This document shows positions 1 to 48,988 of a DNA stretch of 54,398 bases, piece after piece. The stretch's first letter is position 1, and every line of letters starts with the position of its first letter. Position numbers and translations under genes: made by a program. The notes below the pieces were generated by a model. It saw only the letters and a program-made list of their open reading frames with translations. It made no database searches and was not told where the DNA came from. The DNA is taken from the sequence record SRR31156797_8656. The stretch is one strand, 5' to 3'.

Positions 1-2355
1 GTAACGTAAAGATTCTATTGGGTTTTGATTAGCAGATTTCCAGGTTTGTACTGAAACAGTTAGTAGCGCAAACAGAGTCGTAATGATTCCGGAAATTAGA
101 AATGGAAGTACACCTATTTGAACTTTATAGGCAAAATTTTCAAGCCAAGCATGCATGATAAACCATACTGAGGGAATTGAGATAACAAAGGAAATCATTA
201 ACCATTTGGCATAAGTTGAAAATAACAAACGAATGATTTGTGGGATACTTGCTCCTGCTACTTTTCGAATTCCAATTTCCTTGGTTCTTCGTTGTATTAT
301 GAATAAGGTTAATGCATACAATCCAAGTAGAGCAAGAAGAATTGACAAAATTGAAGAAGAAATGGCTAAGGATTCTTCCTGTTCTTCCTTTTGATAGCGG
401 TTGCGACAAATATCATCGATCAACTCATAGTTTATGGTTCTTCCTTCATCAAATTGAGTAATAGTTCTTTTTATATCATCTAATACAATTGAATATTGAT
501 GATTTTTTGCTTTAATCAGAATGTTGTCTACTCTTTTGGAATAACTGAACATTAAAGGTTGTATTTCTTCGGACATGGAAGCATAATGGAAATCTTTAAC
601 GACTCCTTTAATGGAATATATGGTATCATGAAAAATAACATCTTTACCAACTGCATCTTTAATATTTAATAGTTCTAAAGCTTTTTCATTTAGAATTATG
701 CTTTTTTCATCAGCCTTACTAAAATCACGAAAAGCACTTCCTGCAATAAATTGTATATCTAAAAGTTCAAAATAGCCAGGAGCAACACGATATTCATTTA
801 TCAATTTGGTTGCTTCGTCGCTGGTATTAGCCATTTTTAAACCTTGTCCGCTACAGCCACCTCCAGGTAAATGCGAACTTGCACTAACATCTGCGATATT
901 AGGATTGTTTAGAAGCTCTTGTTTAATTGACTCGTAAGATTGAGCCTGTTTTCCACTCAAATTGTTAATGGCAATTACTTTATCAGGTTCGAACCCCAAA
1001 TCGCTTTCCTTCATGAATTTAATTTGCATTTGTACTATAATGACAGAAGCAATTAGTATCATGGATACGGAAAATTGAAATACGACCAAAGCTTGTGATA
1101 ACCTGTTGGTTTTATGATTTGATTTTGTATTTCCTTTGATAATGCTCGCAGGAGAATATTTACTAATGATAAAGGAAGGATACAAACCGGAAAGTACTCC
1201 TACTAATATTGCTAGCATAGGAATTCCCAAGTATAGGATTGGATTACCAAAATAGTCAATGCTCAAATTTCGGTTCATTAAATTTGAAAAGAAAGGAAGT
1301 AGTATTTCGGAAATTATTATTCCTAGTAAAATGGCAAAAAGAACCATGGTAAGAGTAAAAATAAATATTCTTTTTATAACACTAAATCGTGTCGCACCAA
1401 TTGCCTTTTGTAGACCAATTTCACTTAGTTTACTATCATATTGAACAACAAGAATGTTAATGAAATTGATGATTGCAATGATCAAAATTAAAGCTGCAAG
1501 AATAATTTGAACGTAAATGGAATTGATTTTTCCTTGTGGTTTAAGGTACGTTTCATAATTCGATTTAAGGTGGATATCAGTTAGTTTTTGGGTAAGGGAT
1601 TCTACCTTAAGGTTATAAGCTCCAAATCGATCATTTAATTTTTTATTGTATAACTGATTAATTTTCTCAAGTGTTTTTTCTGTGTTAATTCCTGATTTTA
1701 AAAGGGCGTAAGCAAAATATTCCAGAGATTTCATGTTATCCAGATTTTTCGATGCAGTGAATGGAACAAGTACATCAAAATCATAATGAGAAGTAATAGG
1801 AATGTCTTCTACTACACAAGCAACGCTAAATGTTTTTCCCATACTTTCAAACTCTTTCCCTACCGCATCAGTTGTATTGAATAATTTTTGGGCAGTTCTC
1901 TGATTTATTACTGCACTGTTTGGTGACGAAAATAGCTTATTAGGATTGGCAGAATAAATCTTTTCTAAAGTAAAAACTTTATGAAAGTTAGTGTCAACAT
2001 ACAAAGCTTTAATTCCTCTGAATTCGTTATCAGCTATTTTAATATTTAGATAATTCAAATTATAAATCTCCGTGATTTCCGCAATTTCTGGAATATGCCT
2101 GGCGAAATTATCTTCTTTTAGTCGAAGACACAGTGGCATAATCTCATCCTTTTCCTCTTGTACAACTTTGGTTAGTATTCGGAAGATTCTTTCATGTTTC
2201 TCATTGTGTTTATCGTAGTTTAATTCGTGCTGAACGTAAATGGAAATTAATAGTACTGCCGCCGTGCCTATTGCTAAACCGACAATGTTAATAGTTGAAT
2301 TCAATTTTTCTTTCAACAAGCCTCTGAAGGATAATTTTATATTGTGCCAAAGCAT
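1..2355 (-). CDS. ABC transporter permease, MacB/FtsX family (runs off the left edge, missing only the last residue or so and the stop)
   Basis: Absent from the ORF track. ATG at 2355 reads MLWHNIKLSFRGLLKEKLNSTINIVGLAIG..., and the same frame reads ...WKSANQNPIESLRY at base 1. Both ends parallel the neighbouring permease. Confidence 0.9.
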   Translation of the reverse strand, partial: MLWHNIKLSFRGLLKEKLNSTINIVGLAIGTAAVLLISIYVQHELNYDKHNEKHERIFRILTKVVQEEKDEIMPLCLRLKEDNFARHIPEIAEITEIYNLNYLNIKIADNEFRGIKALYVDTNFHKVFTLEKIYSANPNKLFSSPNSAVINQRTAQKLFNTTDAVGKEFESMGKTFSVACVVEDIPITSHYDFDVLVPFTASKNLDNMKSLEYFAYALLKSGINTEKTLEKINQLYNKKLNDRFGAYNLKVESLTQKLTDIHLKSNYETYLKPQGKINSIYVQIILAALILIIAIINFINILVVQYDSKLSEIGLQKAIGATRFSVIKRIFIFTLTMVLFAILLGIIISEILLPFFSNLMNRNLSIDYFGNPILYLGIPMLAILVGVLSGLYPSFIISKYSPASIIKGNTKSNHKTNRLSQALVVFQFSVSMILIASVIIVQMQIKFMKESDLGFEPDKVIAINNLSGKQAQSYESIKQELLNNPNIADVSASSHLPGGGCSGQGLKMANTSDEATKLINEYRVAPGYFELLDIQFIAGSAFRDFSKADEKSIILNEKALELLNIKDAVGKDVIFHDTIYSIKGVVKDFHYASMSEEIQPLMFSYSKRVDNILIKAKNHQYSIVLDDIKRTITQFDEGRTINYELIDDICRNRYQKEEQEESLAISSSILSILLALLGLYALTLFIIQRRTKEIGIRKVAGASIPQIIRLLFSTYAKWLMISFVISIPSVWFIMHAWLENFAYKVQIGVLPFLISGIITTLFALLTVSVQTWKSANQNPIESLRY

Positions 2356-10583: not shown

Positions 10584-11801
10584 ATGAAAAAATTAATTCT
10601 TGTAAAAAAAGCAATGCTTTTATTGACCTTTTTTGGTTTTGTTTTTATATCGTGTGATAATGATTTAGAAACGGAAATTAACGAAATTCCTGATGTAATA
10701 TCTGAGGTTAAAACTGAATTTAGTGTCACAAATGGAAAGGCTACTTACATTGTTCAGTTTGAGGACGATTTTGCATTGAATTCAGAATTGAAAGGACTAA
10801 AAGGCTATGAAAAAAAGTCTTTGCGAATGAAATCTCATGTCTCAAATTTTGTTAAGAAAAATGGAATTTCTAACAATGATGTAGAACATACTTACAGTAC
10901 CGCAATTAAAGGTTTTTCAGTTAAATTAAATGAAAATCAACTAGCCAAATTAATATCTAACCCTAATGTAAAACGCATTGAGAAGGATGTTGAAATAGCT
11001 CTAGGTAAGCCAGGTGGAGGAACAACTCAACCAGCTCAAGAAACACCATGGGGTATTACTCGCATAGGTGGTGCAGGTAATGGTGTTGGTAAAACGGCTT
11101 GGATTATTGACTCTGGAATTGATTTAGATCACCCAGATTTAAATGTAGATGTTGCTAGGAGTAAAACATTTATTACTCAAGGAAAAACTACTCCAGATGA
11201 CCAACATGGACATGGAACTCATGTTGCAGGAACTGTTGCTGCTATAGATAATAATATTGGAGTTATTGGAGTAGCTGCGGGTGCAAAAGTTGTTTCTTGT
11301 CGTGTTTTAGATAGAAGAGGTAATGGAAATATGTCATGGTCAATGGCTGCTTTAGATTATATCGCAGCTGAAGGTCAGCCAGGTGATGCTGTTAATATGA
11401 GCTTGGGACCAAAATCTCGTTATACTTATGATGCTTATGATGAAACTGTAAAAGCCGTTGCAGATCTTGGAATATTGATTTCGATTGCAGCAGGTAACTC
11501 ATCCGACGATGCTTTGTACTATTCACCTTCCCGTGCAAATCATGAAAATATTTATACAATTTCAGCATCTGACATTAATGATAATTTTGCATCATTCTCA
11601 AATTATGGATCACCAGTTGATTATTGTGCTCCTGGTGTTGATGTAAAATCATGTTATCTTAACGGTGGTTATGGTACTATGAGTGGAACGTCAATGGCTG
11701 CTCCTCATGTTTGTGGCTTGCTGTTGCTTGGTCCAATCCATACCGATGGATATGTGAATAATGATCCTGATGGTGACGCAGATCCTATTGCACATAGATA
11801 G
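10584..11801 (+). CDS. S8 subtilisin-like serine protease lipoprotein with I9 propeptide
   Basis: Lipobox FISC; YIVQF/GFSV propeptide; catalytic triad IIDSG, HGTHVAG, GTSMAAPHV. Confidence 0.93.
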   Translation: MKKLILVKKAMLLLTFFGFVFISCDNDLETEINEIPDVISEVKTEFSVTNGKATYIVQFEDDFALNSELKGLKGYEKKSLRMKSHVSNFVKKNGISNNDVEHTYSTAIKGFSVKLNENQLAKLISNPNVKRIEKDVEIALGKPGGGTTQPAQETPWGITRIGGAGNGVGKTAWIIDSGIDLDHPDLNVDVARSKTFITQGKTTPDDQHGHGTHVAGTVAAIDNNIGVIGVAAGAKVVSCRVLDRRGNGNMSWSMAALDYIAAEGQPGDAVNMSLGPKSRYTYDAYDETVKAVADLGILISIAAGNSSDDALYYSPSRANHENIYTISASDINDNFASFSNYGSPVDYCAPGVDVKSCYLNGGYGTMSGTSMAAPHVCGLLLLGPIHTDGYVNNDPDGDADPIAHR

Positions 11802-11823
11802 TATTGTTTTATTAAAGTTAATG

Positions 11824-11854
11824 AAGGTCGTACTTTAGTGTACGACCTTTTTTT
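11824..11854 (+). terminator. Intrinsic terminator of the protease gene
   Basis: aaggtcgtac-tttagt-gtacgacctt followed by a T-run. Confidence 0.85.
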
Positions 11855-11905: not shown

Positions 11906-12943
11906 TTATAAAAAAATGATACCAGCTTTTTTACAAGCGTCTCTTAATTCATCTGGCCAAATACTTGATTGAACTTCACCAATATGTGCTTTTCGCAATA
12001 AGAACATGCACAATCGTGATTGTCCAATTCCACCACCAATGGAATATGGTAATTCACCAGCAAGAAGTTTTTTGTGGAACATCAGCTCTTTTCTTTTTTC
12101 TTCACCTTTAAGTTTCAATTGTTTTTTAAGTGCATCTTCATCTACTCTAATTCCCATCGATGAAATTTCAAAAGCTTGTTTCAATATAGGGTTCCAAAGC
12201 AAAATGTCACCATTTAATCCACTGTATCCGTTTAGTGTTGGAGTTGTCCAATCATCATAATCTGGAGCTCTGCCATCATGAGGTTCTCCATTGGCAAGTT
12301 CGCCACCAATTCCAATAATGAAAACGGCACCATGTTCTTCTGTAAACTTGCTTTCTCTTTCTTTTGGACTTAAATCAGGATATTTAGCCAGAAGATCTTC
12401 GGCATGGATAAATGTGATTTCATCTGGAAGTTGTGGTTTTAAAGTAGGATAGTATTCACTCAAGATGTATTCAGTTCTTTTTAGCGAGGAATAGATTTGT
12501 TTTACACTTTTAATTAGAAAATCAAGTTGTCTCTCTTCTTTTTGTATCGATTTTTCCCAATCCCACTGATCTACATATACCGAGTGTAGGTTAGTGAAAT
12601 CTTCATCAGGTCGCAAGGCATTCATATCGGTATAAAGACCTTTTCCGGCTGGAATTTGTAATTCTCCCAACATGTATCTTTTCCATTTGGCTAGAGAGTG
12701 AACCACTTCAGCTGTTTGGTCAGATAATCCTTTAATAGGAAAAGCAACAGGGCGTTCAATTCCGTTTAAATCATCATTTAAGCCGGTCCCCTTCATAACA
12801 ATCATGGGGGCTGTTACTCGTCTTAATTTCAGTTCCGATGACAATTGAAGTTGAAACTGATCCTTAATGAATTTGATCGCCTTTTCTGTCGCATCCAGAT
12901 CGAGAATGCTTTTGTAATCCGTTGGAATAATTAAGTTTTTCAT
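11906..12943 (-). CDS. asnA: Aspartate--ammonia ligase (asparagine synthetase A)
   Basis: GLNDDLNGIERPV, VVHSLAKWKR, HSVYVDQWDWE, DGRAPDYDDW, SIGGGIGQSR. Confidence 0.97.
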   Translation of the reverse strand: MKNLIIPTDYKSILDLDATEKAIKFIKDQFQLQLSSELKLRRVTAPMIVMKGTGLNDDLNGIERPVAFPIKGLSDQTAEVVHSLAKWKRYMLGELQIPAGKGLYTDMNALRPDEDFTNLHSVYVDQWDWEKSIQKEERQLDFLIKSVKQIYSSLKRTEYILSEYYPTLKPQLPDEITFIHAEDLLAKYPDLSPKERESKFTEEHGAVFIIGIGGELANGEPHDGRAPDYDDWTTPTLNGYSGLNGDILLWNPILKQAFEISSMGIRVDEDALKKQLKLKGEEKRKELMFHKKLLAGELPYSIGGGIGQSRLCMFLLRKAHIGEVQSSIWPDELRDACKKAGIIFL

Positions 12944-12977
12944 GTTTTATAATTTTTGGTTAATAGTTATTTTAAAT

Positions 12978-13011
12978 AAAAAAAGCCTTTCTCGTTAGGT
13001 GAGAAAGGCTT
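12978..13011 (-). terminator. Attenuator terminator 2 (proximal to asnA)
   Basis: Minus strand AAGCCTTTCTC-acctaac-GAGAAAGGCTT-TTTTT, inside the 5' leader and 34 nt before the asnA ATG. Confidence 0.9.
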
Positions 13012-13037
13012 GCTATATGATATAACAATTTACTTTC

Positions 13038-13091
13038 TCACCACAAGGGAGAATTATTATTGTTGTTATTATTGAAATTGAATTGTATCAT
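13038..13091 (-). CDS. Asn-rich leader peptide 2, MIQFNFNNNNNNNSPLW (17 aa)
   Basis: atg ata caa ttc aat ttc aat aat aac aac aat aat aat tct ccc ttg tgg tga; 8 Asn, 7 of them consecutive. Confidence 0.88.
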   Translation of the reverse strand: MIQFNFNNNNNNNSPLW

Positions 13092-13102
13092 TTAGTTAAA
13101 AT

Positions 13103-13131
13103 AAAAAAGCCTTCCCAATTTGGGAAGGCTT
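13103..13131 (-). terminator. Attenuator terminator 1 (distal)
   Basis: Minus strand AAGCCTTCCCA-aat-TGGGAAGGCTT-TTTT. Confidence 0.9.
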
Positions 13132-13154
13132 GTAAAAAATATCGTTTAAAATAT

Positions 13155-13232
13155 CTATAATCTTCCCAGCTTTGATGAATTATTATTCATCAAATTATTA
13201 AAAGAATTATTATTGATATTTACTTGTTTCAT
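13155..13232 (-). CDS. Asn-rich leader peptide 1, MKQVNINNNSFNNLMNNNSSKLGRL (25 aa)
   Basis: atg aaa caa gta aat atc aat aat aat tct ttt aat aat ttg atg aat aat aat tca tca aag ctg gga aga tta tag; 9 Asn. Confidence 0.88.
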   Translation of the reverse strand: MKQVNINNNSFNNLMNNNSSKLGRL

Positions 13233-13248
13233 GTGTTTTTCTTTGTTA

Positions 13249-13279
13249 CAAATGTAGGTTTTTATCTTTTACTAGCAAA
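13249..13279 (-). promoter_or_regulatory. Bacteroidota sigma-A promoter for leader-asnA
   Basis: Minus strand TTTG (13279-13276)-N19-TACATTTG (13256-13249), a perfect match to the -33/-7 consensus. Confidence 0.8.
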
Positions 13280-13482
13280 GTTGTTTGTGGATAAAAAATC
13301 ATATTATTCATTTCAAAGCTTGTTTGAAAAGAGTTTCTGGGGTGCTTAATCGCCTGGCAGTTAACTGTATTGACTTGTGTGTTTGACTGTTGGTTGTAAA
13401 TGCAAAAATAATCAGATAAATGTTTAGTAATTGAATCTAATTACGTACATTTACTAAGTAATAATTTTAAATTTTTTAAGTA

Positions 13483-13674
13483 ATGCCTACAGGTACAGTA
13501 AAATTTTTTAACGAATCCAAAGGATTTGGGTTCATTAAGAACAGTGAAACACAAGAAGACATTTTTGTTCATGTAACAGGTTTGATCGATAAAATCGACC
13601 AAGGTGATAACGTAACTTATGATGTTGTGGAAGGAAAAAAAGGATTAAATGCAGTTAATGTAAAAATGGACTAA
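13483..13674 (+). CDS. Cold-shock domain protein
   Basis: GTVKFFNESKGFGFI (RNP1), DIFVH (RNP2), 63 aa. Confidence 0.96.
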   Translation: MPTGTVKFFNESKGFGFIKNSETQEDIFVHVTGLIDKIDQGDNVTYDVVEGKKGLNAVNVKMD

Positions 13675-13699
13675 TTTTAAAGAAATAATTTTCCTTGGT

Positions 13700-13728
13700 A
13701 AAGCTCAATTTAGAATTGAGCTTTTTTT
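13700..13728 (+). terminator. Intrinsic terminator of the csp gene
   Basis: aagctcaatt-tag-aattgagctt followed by a T-run. Confidence 0.85.
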
Positions 13729-13820
13729 GGCTCTAATAAAATAATATCAAACTTGTATATTTATGTTTGAATTAAGTGAGCAAAGGAATTATTATACTAC
13801 GATTTCATTATTTTTGTGGC

Positions 13821-14237
13821 ATGATCAATACGAAAGAAGCCTTAGATACACTAAATAAAATGTGCTCGGATACCTTAATGGAGCATTTAGGAATTATTTA
13901 TACAGAAGTTGGAGAGGATTATTTGGTTGCAGAAATGGAAGTTACTTCGAAGCATTGGCAGCCAATGAAAATATTACATGGAGGTGCTACCTTGGCATTG
14001 GCCGAATCAGTTGGAAGCGCACTTTCAGTTATCCATACAGATTTGAAAAATTTCGATGTGAAAGGCATGGAGATTAATGCTAATCATGTACGCAGTTTAA
14101 GAAAAGGAAAAATTACTGCTAAAGCAAAATTTTTACATAAAGGTGGAATGACACATATCGTAGAGATCAATGTATTAAATGAACAAGACAAGCTGGTTTC
14201 TATTTGTAGAATTACCAATGTGATCATTAAAAAATAG
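13821..14237 (+). CDS. menI: Hotdog-fold thioesterase, probable DHNA-CoA thioesterase (MenI/YdiI-like)
   Basis: QPMKILHGGATLALAES, GMEINANH; first gene of the men cluster. ATG 13821 follows a TATTTTTG box at 13809-13816. Confidence 0.82.
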   Translation: MINTKEALDTLNKMCSDTLMEHLGIIYTEVGEDYLVAEMEVTSKHWQPMKILHGGATLALAESVGSALSVIHTDLKNFDVKGMEINANHVRSLRKGKITAKAKFLHKGGMTHIVEINVLNEQDKLVSICRITNVIIKK

Positions 14238-14240
14238 TGA

Positions 14241-15347
14241 ATGAATCTATTGGATAAAGAAAATAGAAAACGAGACGAATTCCTTTCTACTTGTTTGGTC
14301 AAGAATCTTGCATTTTATGCCTATTCATTGCCCGAAACATCATCAATAAAATTTGGTGTTCAAATAAATGATCTGCCTCAGAGTTATCGGAAATTGTCAA
14401 ACCTGAAGGGGAAAGAGGGTTTCGTATTTGCTCCTTTTGATCAGAAAGGAAAGCATGAGTCCTATTTTATCAGAAAAGATCTTGATGAGGATGATTTTAA
14501 AAATGAAAACCTCGATAAAATTGAGGATTATAATGCTGAAGAGAATAGTACAATTCATGAAAGTACTAGAAAAGAGTATTCACAACAGATGGATATTTTA
14601 CTTTCTCAACTCAATCAAAAAGAATTAGATAAAGTAATTCTCTCCAGGATTCATATCTTGAATCAAATGGGAAGGGAAAAAGCTCTTACTTATTTTTTGA
14701 AGTTGATTGATGCATATCCTAATGCTTTTGTGTTTATGGTTGATATTCCTAAAATTGGATTGTGGATTGGTGCCAGTCCGGAACGATTGATATCTCAAAA
14801 ACACAATATGATGGAAACTGTTGCATTGGCAGGAACTCAAAAATTAGGAGAGAGAGAGCTTGAGAAAGTCGTTTGGGAAGAGAAGGAGGTTGAAGAACAG
14901 GCTTTTGTAAGTTCTTATATTGAAGAATTGCTTAAAGAAAATAAAATTACAAACTATAAGTGGAAAGGTCCTTTTACCAGTCAGGCTGGAAATCTTGTTC
15001 ATCTGAAAACGGTTTATCAGATAAACTCAAATTTAGGCTTTGATCAAAGCTCATCTTTTGCGGAGGCATTGCATCCAACGCCCGCTGTTTGCGGATTGCC
15101 AAAAAGGGATGCAATGGAATTAATACGTACAGTAGAAAATCACGATAGGGAATATTATGCTGGTTATCTGGGACCTGTTCATACCAATGGAGACATGTCT
15201 TTGTTCGTGAATTTGAGAAGTATGAAGGTCTTTAAAAATATGATGGCTTTGTTTGTAGGAGGAGGTATTACTTCAGGTTCTGATCCAGAAAAGGAATGGG
15301 ATGAAACCTGTTTTAAAGCGCAAACTCTCTTAAATGTGATTAAATAA
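14241..15347 (+). CDS. menF: Isochorismate synthase
   Basis: WIGASPERL, ALAGT, LHPTPAVCG, REYYAGYLG, LFVNLR, GGGIT. Confidence 0.92.
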   Translation: MNLLDKENRKRDEFLSTCLVKNLAFYAYSLPETSSIKFGVQINDLPQSYRKLSNLKGKEGFVFAPFDQKGKHESYFIRKDLDEDDFKNENLDKIEDYNAEENSTIHESTRKEYSQQMDILLSQLNQKELDKVILSRIHILNQMGREKALTYFLKLIDAYPNAFVFMVDIPKIGLWIGASPERLISQKHNMMETVALAGTQKLGERELEKVVWEEKEVEEQAFVSSYIEELLKENKITNYKWKGPFTSQAGNLVHLKTVYQINSNLGFDQSSSFAEALHPTPAVCGLPKRDAMELIRTVENHDREYYAGYLGPVHTNGDMSLFVNLRSMKVFKNMMALFVGGGITSGSDPEKEWDETCFKAQTLLNVIK

Positions 15348-15481
15348 AGGAAATTGTTCTAAATTTGAGTTTCGAAAGGTAAAAGCACGAAGTACAAAAT
15401 GCAAATGTTTACCAGTAGGCTAAAAGCTTAAATATGAATTCAGAATTTACTTCAATAGTAGAAAAAGAAAATATAAAACAG

Positions 15482-17179
15482 ATGGAGCGTAATTATTCAG
15501 ATATCAAAGGTGTGAAAGAACTGATTGATATCTGCTGGGCTAAAGGAATGGAATACGTAATTGTTTCGCCTGGTTCAAGAAATGCTCCTTTAAGTATATC
15601 ATTCGCTAAAGACCAGCGAATAAGAAGTTTGGTTATTGTTGATGAGCGAAGTGCAGCTTATTTTGCACTGGGAATTACTCAGCAAACCAGAAAGCCGGTT
15701 GGTTTGGTTTGTACTTCGGGTACGGCTCTTTTAAACTATGGACCTGCAGTAGCCGAGGCCTACTACCAGCGTTTACCACTGGTTGTGATATCTGCAGATA
15801 GACCCACAGAATGGATTGATCAGGACGATAGTCAGGCGATACCGCAGCCTGATGTGTTTAAGGGATTTGTAAAAGATTCTTATCAATTGCCTTTGGATGC
15901 TAATAATCCTGATGATTGCTGGTACCTAAATAGAATGGTGAATGAGGCTTTATCGAAAGCACAAAGTGGCAGATTAGGTCCGGTTCATATCAATTTTCCT
16001 TTGCGTGAGCCTTTGTATGGAGTGAAGCAATATCCAGACTTGGATGAGCGTGTAATTCGTAAAGTAAGTTCGGTAGATGAATTGAGCTCAGATAGCATTG
16101 AAATGCTTGCAAAGACTTTTAATTCTACAAAAAAGATATTGATTTTGGCGGGCTTATTGCATCAGCAGCCTGAATTGAATCAACTGTTATCCCAATTGGC
16201 AAAGCAGCCGAATGTGCTTGTAATGACAGAGTCGGTTGCTAATGTACACGATGATAATTTTTTACCATGTATAGATAGAGTGATTTGCGCGATAAAAGAG
16301 GATGAGGTGAAAGATTTTCAGCCAGATTTACTTATCAATTTTGGAGGTCCTCTAGTTTCTAAAAAGATAAAGACTTTCTTGCGAGATAATAAACCAAAAG
16401 AGCATTGGTTTGTGGGAAAGGAGGATCATTTTATTGATACTTTTAAGAATTTGACATCGCATATTGATGTTTCTCCAATAGCATTTTTCAAGCAATTATT
16501 GCCTTTAATCACTGATATTGAAAGTGAATATTCAAACCTTTGGAATGAAAGAGATGCAGTAGTTGGAATGCTACACAAAGATTACCTTGAAGATTTGCAA
16601 TGGAGCGATATGAAAGCTTTTGAAAAAATCTTAAATGCTATTCCAGAGGGAGGAAATTTACAATTGGCAAATTCTTCTGTGGTAAGATATGTCCAATTGT
16701 TTACATCATCAGATAAATTAGTTTACAACTCGAATAGAGGAACCAGTGGGATCGATGGTTGCACATCAACAGCAGCAGGAGCAGCTTTGGTGAATGGAAA
16801 AACCACCACGTTAATTACTGGAGATATTAGTTTTTTCTATGATTCTAACGGATTGTGGAATAAGTATCTGCAGCCAAATCTTAAAATTATTCTAATAAAT
16901 AATGGAGGCGGAGGAATCTTTCGATTCATATCGGGACCATCGGGAGTAGAAGAATTGGAAGAATATTTTGAAACCGTACAGGAATACAAGGCTGATAAAT
17001 TGGCAGAAACCTACGGATTAGATTATTTTTACGCTGAAAATGAAACAGAGGTAGAAAACATTCTACCGCAATTTTATGCAGCTAACAATAAAGCTGCTGT
17101 TTTGGAGGTTAAAACACCCAGAACGATAAACGATCAAGTGCTAATCAATTACTTTAAAAACATAAAAACACAGGTATGA
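15482..17179 (+). CDS. menD: SEPHCHC synthase (ThDP-dependent)
   Basis: [45 protein letters not shown]. Start is 15482 or 15434. Confidence 0.95.
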
Positions 17180-48031: not shown

Positions 48032-48988
48032 ATGAATAAATTAGCAGTTGTAGCTTTAGGAGGTAATGCTTTACTTCGAGGCAATCAAAAAGGTACTGTA
48101 GAAGAACAAAATCAGAATACTACTGATACTTTAGAAAATCTTATTTTCTTAATTAAAGAAGGATATGATGTTATTATTGCTCATGGTAATGGACCACAGG
48201 TAGGTAATATCTTAATGAGAAACGATGCTGGTGAACAATTGTATAATATTCCTCAAATGCCATTGGATATTGATGTGGCTGACTCTCAAGGTGGAATTGG
48301 ATACATGATTGAGAGAAACTTGCGTAATGTGCTAAAAGCAAATGGCATCGAAAAAGATGTTGTGACTTTGGTGACTCAAGTTGTGGTTGATGAAAATGAT
48401 CCTGCATTTACAAATCCTGTAAAGCGTGTTGGTAAAATTTATACCAAAGAACAAGCTGACGAATTGAAAGCAGAAAAGGGATGGATCTTTAAAGAAGAAG
48501 TTAAAGCTGACGGTGGTTGGAGAAGAGTAGTACCTTCGCCAAAGCCAATTCGTGTTATGAACGAGAAAGTAATTGAAAATTTGGCTCGTCAAGGTAATAT
48601 TGTTATCACTGTTGGTGGTGGTGGTGTTCCTGTATCTATTAATAAAGAGGGAAATATTTGTCCGGTTGAAGCAGTTATCGACAAAGATTTGGCTTCTGCA
48701 TTGATTGGAGCAAGAATTAAAGCAGATGAGTTTTATATCTTAACAGATGTTCCTTTTGTATATAAGGATTTCAAAGGACCTAATGAGAAGAAATTAGAAT
48801 TTTTGAATCATGCAGATACGATGGATTTGATGGCTGAAGGGACTTTTGCAGAAGGAAGTATGGCTCCAAAAATCCGTGCTTGCCTAAGTTTTATTGAAAA
48901 CGGAGGTGGTAAATCTGTAATTACAGAAGCTACTAAGTTGGAAGATAAAGCGTTCGGGACTAAAATTACAATGGAATACGAGGATTAA
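48032..48988 (+). CDS. arcC: Carbamate kinase
   Basis: VALGGNAL, HGNGPQVG, WRRVVPSPKP, GGGGVPV, EAVIDKD, GSMAPK. Confidence 0.96.
   Translation: MNKLAVVALGGNALLRGNQKGTVEEQNQNTTDTLENLIFLIKEGYDVIIAHGNGPQVGNILMRNDAGEQLYNIPQMPLDIDVADSQGGIGYMIERNLRNVLKANGIEKDVVTLVTQVVVDENDPAFTNPVKRVGKIYTKEQADELKAEKGWIFKEEVKADGGWRRVVPSPKPIRVMNEKVIENLARQGNIVITVGGGGVPVSINKEGNICPVEAVIDKDLASALIGARIKADEFYILTDVPFVYKDFKGPNEKKLEFLNHADTMDLMAEGTFAEGSMAPKIRACLSFIENGGGKSVITEATKLEDKAFGTKITMEYED

Follow-up and report, generated by a model that had tools for sequence, protein, structure and literature searches.

The DNA analysed here, a stretch of 54,398 nucleotides (nt) from sequence record SRR31156797_8656 with a G+C content of 34% (hereafter the window), carries on its minus strand an asnA gene (11906..12943) encoding an aspartate--ammonia ligase of 345 amino acids (aa). 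This protein matched the NCBIfam equivalog TIGR00669 with 423.2 bits against a cut-off of 292.8, in line with the identity assigned to it in an initial annotation of the stretch. In the 335 bases located 5' of asnA, again on the minus strand, a promoter-like site is followed by a first short open reading frame (ORF), a first terminator, a second short ORF, a second terminator, and then asnA itself. Both short ORFs are rich in asparagine (Asn) codons. It is highly probable that these elements act as a transcription attenuator of the leader-peptide type, mediated by the ribosome and sensing charged tRNA-Asn, which occurs twice in series.

The promoter-like site (13249..13279) consists of a -33-type box, a 19-nt spacer, and a -7-type box, and is an exact match to a two-box pattern that we take to be the Bacteroidota consensus. 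It is the only full promoter pattern in the intergenic region, and direct reading of the sequence found no -7-type box between the second terminator and asnA. Leader ORF 1 (13155..13232) starts with ATG and has 25 codons plus a stop codon, among them nine Asn codons, each of them AAT, clustered as 1, 3, 2, and 3. A 7-nt segment within codons 22-24 of this ORF, antiterminator 1 (13162..13168), is complementary to positions 13127-13121 in the 5' arm of terminator 1 (13107..13131), an 11-pair hairpin with a 3-nt loop (-18.0 kcal/mol) and a T-run at 13106-13097. Leader ORF 2 (13038..13091) also starts with ATG and has 17 codons plus a stop codon; eight of the codons encode Asn (six AAT and two AAC), seven of them consecutively. 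Antiterminator 2 (13033..13042), 10 nt in length, spans the stop codon of leader ORF 2 and is complementary to positions 13007-12998, which comprise the 5' arm and the first loop bases of terminator 2 (its 7-nt core was scored in the helix table and the shuffles described below). Terminator 2 (12983..13011) is an 11-pair hairpin with a 7-nt loop (-16.1 kcal/mol) and a T-run at 12982-12973. A small hairpin (13035..13053), designated the protector, lies over the end of leader ORF 2. Direct reading of the sequence reproduced every coordinate and count of the initial annotation for these elements, and the 7-bp (unit 1) and 10-bp (unit 2) antiterminator pairings that it proposed were recovered both as complementarity and in constrained folds.

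The gene on the 5' side of the leader is a divergent cold-shock-domain gene (13483-13674, plus strand); thus, both terminators lie inside the 5' leader of asnA and end no upstream gene. The two units of the window are alike, with a mean column identity of 75% over 150 columns. The enzyme itself is poor in the amino acid that it produces: Asn makes up 2.6% of AsnA (9/345), the lowest value among the 32 ORFs of at least 200 aa in the window (median, 6.1%), which fits the proposed control because the enzyme must be made during Asn shortage. Annotation should record both mini-ORFs and the terminated leader, which would otherwise pass for intergenic DNA.

The arrangement is clearly non-random. Folding of the 307-nt leader gave -68.5 kcal/mol, compared with -38.6 +/- 4.7 kcal/mol for dinucleotide shuffles (z = -6.4; none of 100 shuffles did as well), and a consensus scan detected five terminator-like sites in the 2.1-kb region, compared with 0.8 +/- 0.8 in shuffles. 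We then scanned 710,605 bases on both strands, from 133 sources (the window and 132 fetched loci; L083 and L128, which duplicate L014 and L026, were left out), for a composite signature, defined as an ATG-initiated ORF of 6-45 codons with at least three consecutive Asn codons, together with a stable hairpin and a T-run at -10 to +90 nt of its stop codon. All 21 matches, located in 15 of the sources, lie no more than 400 nt upstream of asnA and on the same strand, and none was found elsewhere. It could be argued that A+T-rich sequence and two ordinary terminators came together by chance, since AAT-rich runs are expected in DNA of 34% G+C. However, a run of at least three Asn codons occurs in only 3 of the 830 small ATG ORFs of the 54-kb window (6-45 codons, distinct stops, both strands), two of which are the leaders themselves, and the composite signature is confined to asnA and conserved across distant genomes; the probability of a chance arrangement is therefore negligible. 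The third small ORF with an Asn triple (48149-48184, minus strand; 11 codons, four Asn) is followed by no terminator in the composite scan and is probably a chance occurrence.

The leader matched no curated Rfam family. When the whole window was searched against Rfam, no hit reached the gathering threshold, and the best hit near the leader, Phe_leader (33.8 bits; gathering threshold, 55), covered terminator 1 only. The T-box covariance model gave no hit in 12500-13800, even at E-values up to 10. The comparison of asnA upstream regions proposed in the initial annotation came out positive: it revealed both upstream ORFs with poly-Asn runs and co-varying antiterminator/terminator pairs.

The closest counterparts of the window were found in the order of genome G002, the genome of locus L014, which has the record title 'Flavobacteriales bacterium'. 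An asnA match was present in 10 of 87 genomes of this order. Where asnA is of the close type (62-67% identity), a tandem layout like that of the window, namely promoter box, leader, terminator, leader, terminator, and asnA, was found in six of six cases; the first leader of L084 differs in having pairs of Asn codons in place of a triple and in starting at a GTG or at an extended ATG. Where asnA is of the distant type (43-50% identity), the leader was absent in all four genomes. One of these distant-type loci, L087 (50% identity), has no Asn leader and instead contains a divergent AsnC/Lrp-family regulator gene (PF01037 and PF13404) next to asnA (232-687, minus strand, and 834-1784, plus strand), an arrangement like that of Escherichia coli and an alternative control of the same gene. 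In the class-wide sample, asnA was present in 16 of 401 genomes (17 loci), with an Asn leader at 5 of the 17 loci and a second Asn-rich ORF downstream at two of these five. The phylum-wide sample added four further loci, none of which has the leader. Single-unit versions occur at L048, L026, L098, and L100.

A similar leader also exists in a G+C-rich background. In the class of genome G004 (record title 'Anaerolineales'), where G+C content is high and a purine-rich ribosome-binding stretch precedes asnA, 9 of 301 genomes had an asnA match. These included six close-type loci, one of them cut off, and a leader with an Asn run followed by a G+C-rich terminator was observed at four of the five assessable ones. 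The Asn runs comprise seven codons in three of these leaders and three codons in L129. Therefore, A+T richness cannot explain the Asn codons in these Anaerolineae-like leaders. Across the related leaders, synonymous AAT/AAC differences occur while Asn is kept in frame (105 AAT and 38 AAC codons over the leaders listed), which argues for selection on the codons as a ribosome reads them. The initial annotation had named an absence of conserved Asn codons in orthologous leaders as a reason to abandon the attenuator, and the in-frame Asn runs show the opposite. At a shorter evolutionary distance, a DNA contig from another sample, representing a strain about 98% identical, differs from the window by 13 substitutions and one inserted base over 12624-13416. 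Four of the substitutions and the insertion fall within the leader, but none is located in the Asn codons or the terminator stems; one substitution replaces a C-G pair in the small hairpin by U-G and another removes the end pair of antiterminator 1.

The leader appears to be specific to asnA among the loci examined. In five tandem-leader genomes, an upstream ORF with an Asn run was found within 450 nt upstream of none of 15 other Asn-related loci, i.e., asnB-type loci (n = 10 of 19 matches) and asnS loci (5/5). This association bears on the idea that the promoter, leader 1, and terminator 1 form a free-standing small RNA or an Asn-rich protein, with termination being constitutive and asnA being driven from elsewhere. 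A promoter, a short ORF, and a strong terminator would indeed yield a discrete RNA of about 135 nt, and terminated attenuator leader transcripts can act as small RNAs in other systems. Nevertheless, such an independent unit is hard to reconcile with the linkage of the signature to asnA in 21 of 21 cases, with leader peptides that diverge widely among lineages except in their Asn codons, and with an intergenic region in which the single full promoter pattern lies ahead of leader 1 and no -7-type box follows terminator 2. We consider this explanation most improbable.

Next, the positions of the antiterminators were compared. For each unit, the stretch between the start of the leader and the terminator was searched for the segment that best complements the terminator's 5' arm. 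In all 13 units scored for the window and L081-L086, the start of this segment lies in the interval from 11 nt upstream to 9 nt downstream of the first stop-codon base; in other lineages, the segment sits 12-70 nt before the stop codon, within the ORF. Unit 1 of the seven genomes has five different arm cores, each with a matching antiterminator. Since the antiterminator sequence tracks the arm sequence, compensatory change is indicated. Covariation was judged from a per-unit helix table and shuffles, because in the MAFFT alignment the antiterminators were shifted by one column for L084 and L086. An equally good arm complement arose in 4 of 500 shuffles for unit 1 of the window and in 5 of 500 for unit 2. 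Over 20 units, the shuffles were as good in at most 6 of 500 cases for 12 units, in 10-24 for four units, and in 56-414 for the remaining four.

These data help to judge a reading in which the terminators do attenuate asnA, while the signal is read by an RNA-binding protein, by uncharged tRNA in a T-box-like manner, or by a small molecule, the Asn codons being incidental. The A+T richness of the leaders in the window would agree with incidental Asn codons. But the region matches no leader family of the T-box, riboswitch, or protein-binding kind, the Asn runs stay in frame through synonymous changes and recur in the G+C-rich Anaerolineae-like leaders, and only ribosome-based reading explains why all 13 units of the window and its nearest group have the antiterminator at the stop codon. 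A signal reader other than the ribosome is thus very unlikely.

A further possibility is that only one unit is functional and the other is a decaying duplicate, so that the tandem has no regulatory meaning. The two units of the window do resemble products of a duplication, single-unit versions exist in other lineages, and some second-unit antiterminators in relatives are weak. On the other hand, neither unit of the window shows decay: in each, the ORF is intact and dense in Asn codons, the terminator has 11 pairs, and the antiterminator is significant. Moreover, the tandem is kept in six of six genomes of a group in which AsnA is only 62-67% identical to that of the window, which argues that the duplication is old and has been maintained, over a time too long for a useless copy to survive. 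A meaningless tandem therefore has a very low probability.

To examine how a ribosome would influence the choice between the alternative structures, it was modelled as a 28-nt mask on RNA cut just before the 3' arm of the terminator (truncated folds). Such truncated folds were used because equilibrium folds of the complete units cannot discriminate between ribosome states. With the A site on any of the Asn codons tested, the minimum-energy fold contained the antiterminator helix in both units (7 bp in unit 1 and 10 bp in unit 2). When the A site was instead placed on the stop codon, both units lost this helix. In silico, an antiterminator that competes with the terminator is thus masked by a ribosome at the stop codon but not by one on the Asn codons, which agrees with the trp/his/thr-type geometry claimed by the initial annotation. 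The protector hairpin that it placed in unit 2 fared less well: the hairpin is present in the full-length minimum-energy fold, but in the truncated fold without a ribosome it is out-competed by the antiterminator.

Based on these observations, we propose the following mechanism. Transcription would start a few bases past the -7 box, near 13242. In each unit, the short ORF would be translated by a ribosome while RNA polymerase advances. When Asn-tRNA is plentiful, the ribosome should reach the stop codon and cover the antiterminator, which lies at or just before that codon; the terminator hairpin would then form, and transcription would end near 13103 in unit 1 or near 12978 in unit 2. When Asn-tRNA is scarce, the ribosome would be expected to stall on Asn codons at least 13 nt upstream, leaving the antiterminator free to pair with the emerging 5' arm of the terminator, so that the polymerase reads through. 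An asnA mRNA would require passage of both units, and their read-through probabilities should multiply. By analogy with tandem riboswitches, the benefit of having two units would then presumably be multiplied termination and a sharper response.

The leader has several of the features by which leader-peptide attenuators are recognized: an Asn-rich short ORF, an intrinsic terminator, a cognate gene, conserved codons, and alternative pairings. Its anatomy, non-randomness, conservation with co-varying arms, and model-consistent folding are matters of observation. Several results nevertheless weigh against the attenuator as proposed. The nearest asnA relatives share only 68% identity among genome contigs and 66% among metagenome contigs, so the comparison is one between distant homologues. 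The leader is also patchily distributed. An Asn-run leader with a terminator was present at only three of the best 80 genome loci, which are mostly from Bacteroidales (L014, L026, and L048), and the composite signature at none of the best 80 metagenome loci; most Bacteroidales asnA genes do without the Asn leader. The promoter pattern occurs at chance level in the window (4 matches versus 3.75 expected), whereas the columns of the -7 box are invariant in an alignment of seven leaders (the window and six related ones). The weight of the promoter-like site consequently comes from its place and conservation only. Some antiterminators of relatives are weak, namely those in the second units of L082 and L083 from the G002 group (136 and 56 of 500 shuffles as good, respectively) and in both units of L101 (414 and 82 of 500). 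Finally, the folding itself raises two difficulties. In equilibrium folds of the full units, the complete terminator prevails whatever the state of the ribosome, so the model depends, like that of trp, on the kinetics of folding during transcription. In addition, truncated folds without a ribosome also form the antiterminator, with the small hairpin at 13035..13053 losing to the 10-bp antiterminator 2. Therefore, the default of the untranslated element may be read-through, unlike that of trp.

Some further features of the related leaders were observed. Among the second leaders of L081-L086, L101, and L103, seven of eight have Pro-Pro(-Gly/Pro) just before the stop codon, the other being L083 with Leu-Pro-Gly; the second leader of the window has a single Pro before its stop codon. 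Pro-Pro-type motifs stall ribosomes that lack the help of elongation factor P, and the Pro-Pro stretch of the second leaders could hold the ribosome over the antiterminator. At L098, L100, and L103, 150-270 nt separate the terminator of the Asn leader from asnA, and the second Asn-rich ORF of L103 reads through the next hairpin with no stop codon before it. These arrangements may reflect design variants or mis-set gene starts. Although they come from distant Bacteroidota, the terminators of the window, L048, L081-L086, L098, and L100 are alike in having a 5' arm rich in pyrimidines and a 3' arm rich in purines, and the stems of the unit 2 terminators are identical in the window and L081-L083. 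Such likeness may be due to common descent or to a constraint, for example, a purine-rich antiterminator that resembles a ribosome-binding sequence.

RNA-library contigs from one marine-sediment study are 99-100% identical to parts of the asnA coding sequence, for example with no differences over 12800-12950; these contigs may derive from DNA, and as assembled contigs they show neither transcript ends nor transcript levels. A 42-nt partial match of a 218-nt contig from an RNA run to 13174-13215 was rejected as probably unrelated low-complexity sequence, which leaves the leader without usable cover. The divergent cold-shock-domain gene is matched with no differences by a 197-nt contig from an estuary RNA library and is followed by a terminator-like hairpin (13700-13724). 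Beyond it lies a row of menaquinone-type genes on the plus strand (13776-17179), encoding a hotdog thioesterase (DHNA-CoA hydrolase-like), an isochorismate synthase (TIGR00543), and MenD (TIGR00173). On the other side, a hairpin at 11823-11850 is situated between the convergent S8-peptidase gene (10584-11801, plus strand) and asnA. This hairpin exists on both strands, with a good T-run on the plus strand only, and it may be a shared terminator.

Leader-peptide attenuation has been documented for only a few amino acids and mostly in Proteobacteria. A leader specific for Asn would add a missing amino acid to this list, and asnA, which AsnC or T-boxes are known to control, would gain a third mode of regulation. 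Two peptide attenuators that respond to the same signal in series would also offer a natural case for testing serial sharpening, as has been argued for tandem riboswitches. Because the mechanism needs a ribosome close behind RNA polymerase, the conserved attenuators in Bacteroidota, which are said to rely little on Shine-Dalgarno pairing, and in Chloroflexota provide indirect evidence of transcription-translation coupling there, and the leader could serve as a compact reporter for studying it. To a specialist, the mechanism as such would be unsurprising, and what deserves attention is that it is specific for Asn, repeats a sensor of one signal in tandem, occurs in two phyla, and implies such coupling. 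A broader scenario, which we regard as speculative and rather unlikely, is that these leaders represent an undescribed class of Asn-tRNA sensors moving with asnA in at least two phyla (Bacteroidota and Anaerolineae-like Chloroflexota), which one Bacteroidota lineage, that of the window, has duplicated. Such a class would imply tight transcription-translation coupling in phyla where it is unstudied. The two stages would then be non-redundant, the scattered Asn codons of the first and the solid run of the second setting different thresholds and giving a steep, near-digital response, while the Pro-Pro(-Gly) motif may tie the switch to elongation factor P or proline status.

With regard to known systems, full-text searches of the literature, as far as it is searchable, returned no description of an Asn leader peptide or an asnA attenuator, and a term search in the text of the attenuator survey by Naville and Gautheret (2010; PMC2965389) gave zero occurrences of 'asparagine' and 'asnA'. 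Term searches of PMC4833913, PMC7366714, and PMC11703503 brought up nothing relevant. The element thus belongs to the known trp/his-type kind of attenuator, and its Asn specificity and serial same-signal architecture appear to be undescribed. Like the enterobacterial trp, his, phe, leu, thr, and ilv attenuators, it has a leader ORF rich in codons of the amino acid made by the downstream enzyme, followed by an intrinsic terminator and by an antiterminator that cannot coexist with it; a ribosome at the stop codon would mask the antiterminator, whereas one that has stalled would leave it free (classical leader-peptide attenuation is summarised in section 11 of PMC3641672). Unlike them, it would read Asn, contains two complete units in series, and reaches the threshold of no Rfam leader family; and unlike trp, it lacks an energetically favoured 1:2-type protector.

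The initial annotation had suspected that both an Asn leader and peptide attenuators in series were without precedent. The former still stands for the searchable literature, but the latter has a precedent in the mgtCBR leader of Salmonella (Lee and Groisman 2012; PMC3641672), where mgtM and mgtP are tandem attenuators sensing ATP and proline. As described there, these units act additively and without intrinsic terminators, and the authors call the case a singular example (PMC3641672). The likeness lies in two short translated ORFs within one leader, each governing read-through, with mgtP sensing an amino acid by its codons. The asnA leader differs from this description in that both of its ORFs are Asn-rich and each has an intrinsic terminator, and the effects of its units should multiply; it therefore does not combine different signals or dispense with intrinsic terminators in the mgtCBR manner.

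Within Bacteroidota, the Bacteroid-trp motif of Rfam represents leader-peptide attenuation. For Flavobacterium psychrophilum, a member of the same phylum, a transcriptome study reports 'strong clues' that leader peptides attenuate operons of amino-acid biosynthesis (PMC9723704); like asnA in the window, these operons are preceded by short ORFs. The relevant passage of that paper names no amino acid or gene, and 'asparagine' and 'asnA' occur zero times in its main text (PMC9723704). Among leaders that repeat a module made of a sensor and a terminator, the asnA leader can also be set beside tandem riboswitches and T-boxes. Tandem thiamine pyrophosphate (TPP) or glycine aptamers and the triple T-box of Bacillus subtilis thrZ are well-known examples; the case of B. 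clausii metE is cited in section 11 of PMC3641672. In all these systems the modules recur in one 5' leader, as they do upstream of asnA, but the sensors are RNA aptamers or tRNA-binding RNAs and not translated ORFs. The last comparison concerns the gene itself. In E. coli, asnA is under the control of AsnC, which shares with the proposed attenuator both the target, asnA, and the signal, asparagine. AsnC, however, is a protein that acts on initiation and is encoded by a divergent AsnC/Lrp-family gene, whereas in the window a cold-shock-protein gene occupies the place of the divergent regulator.

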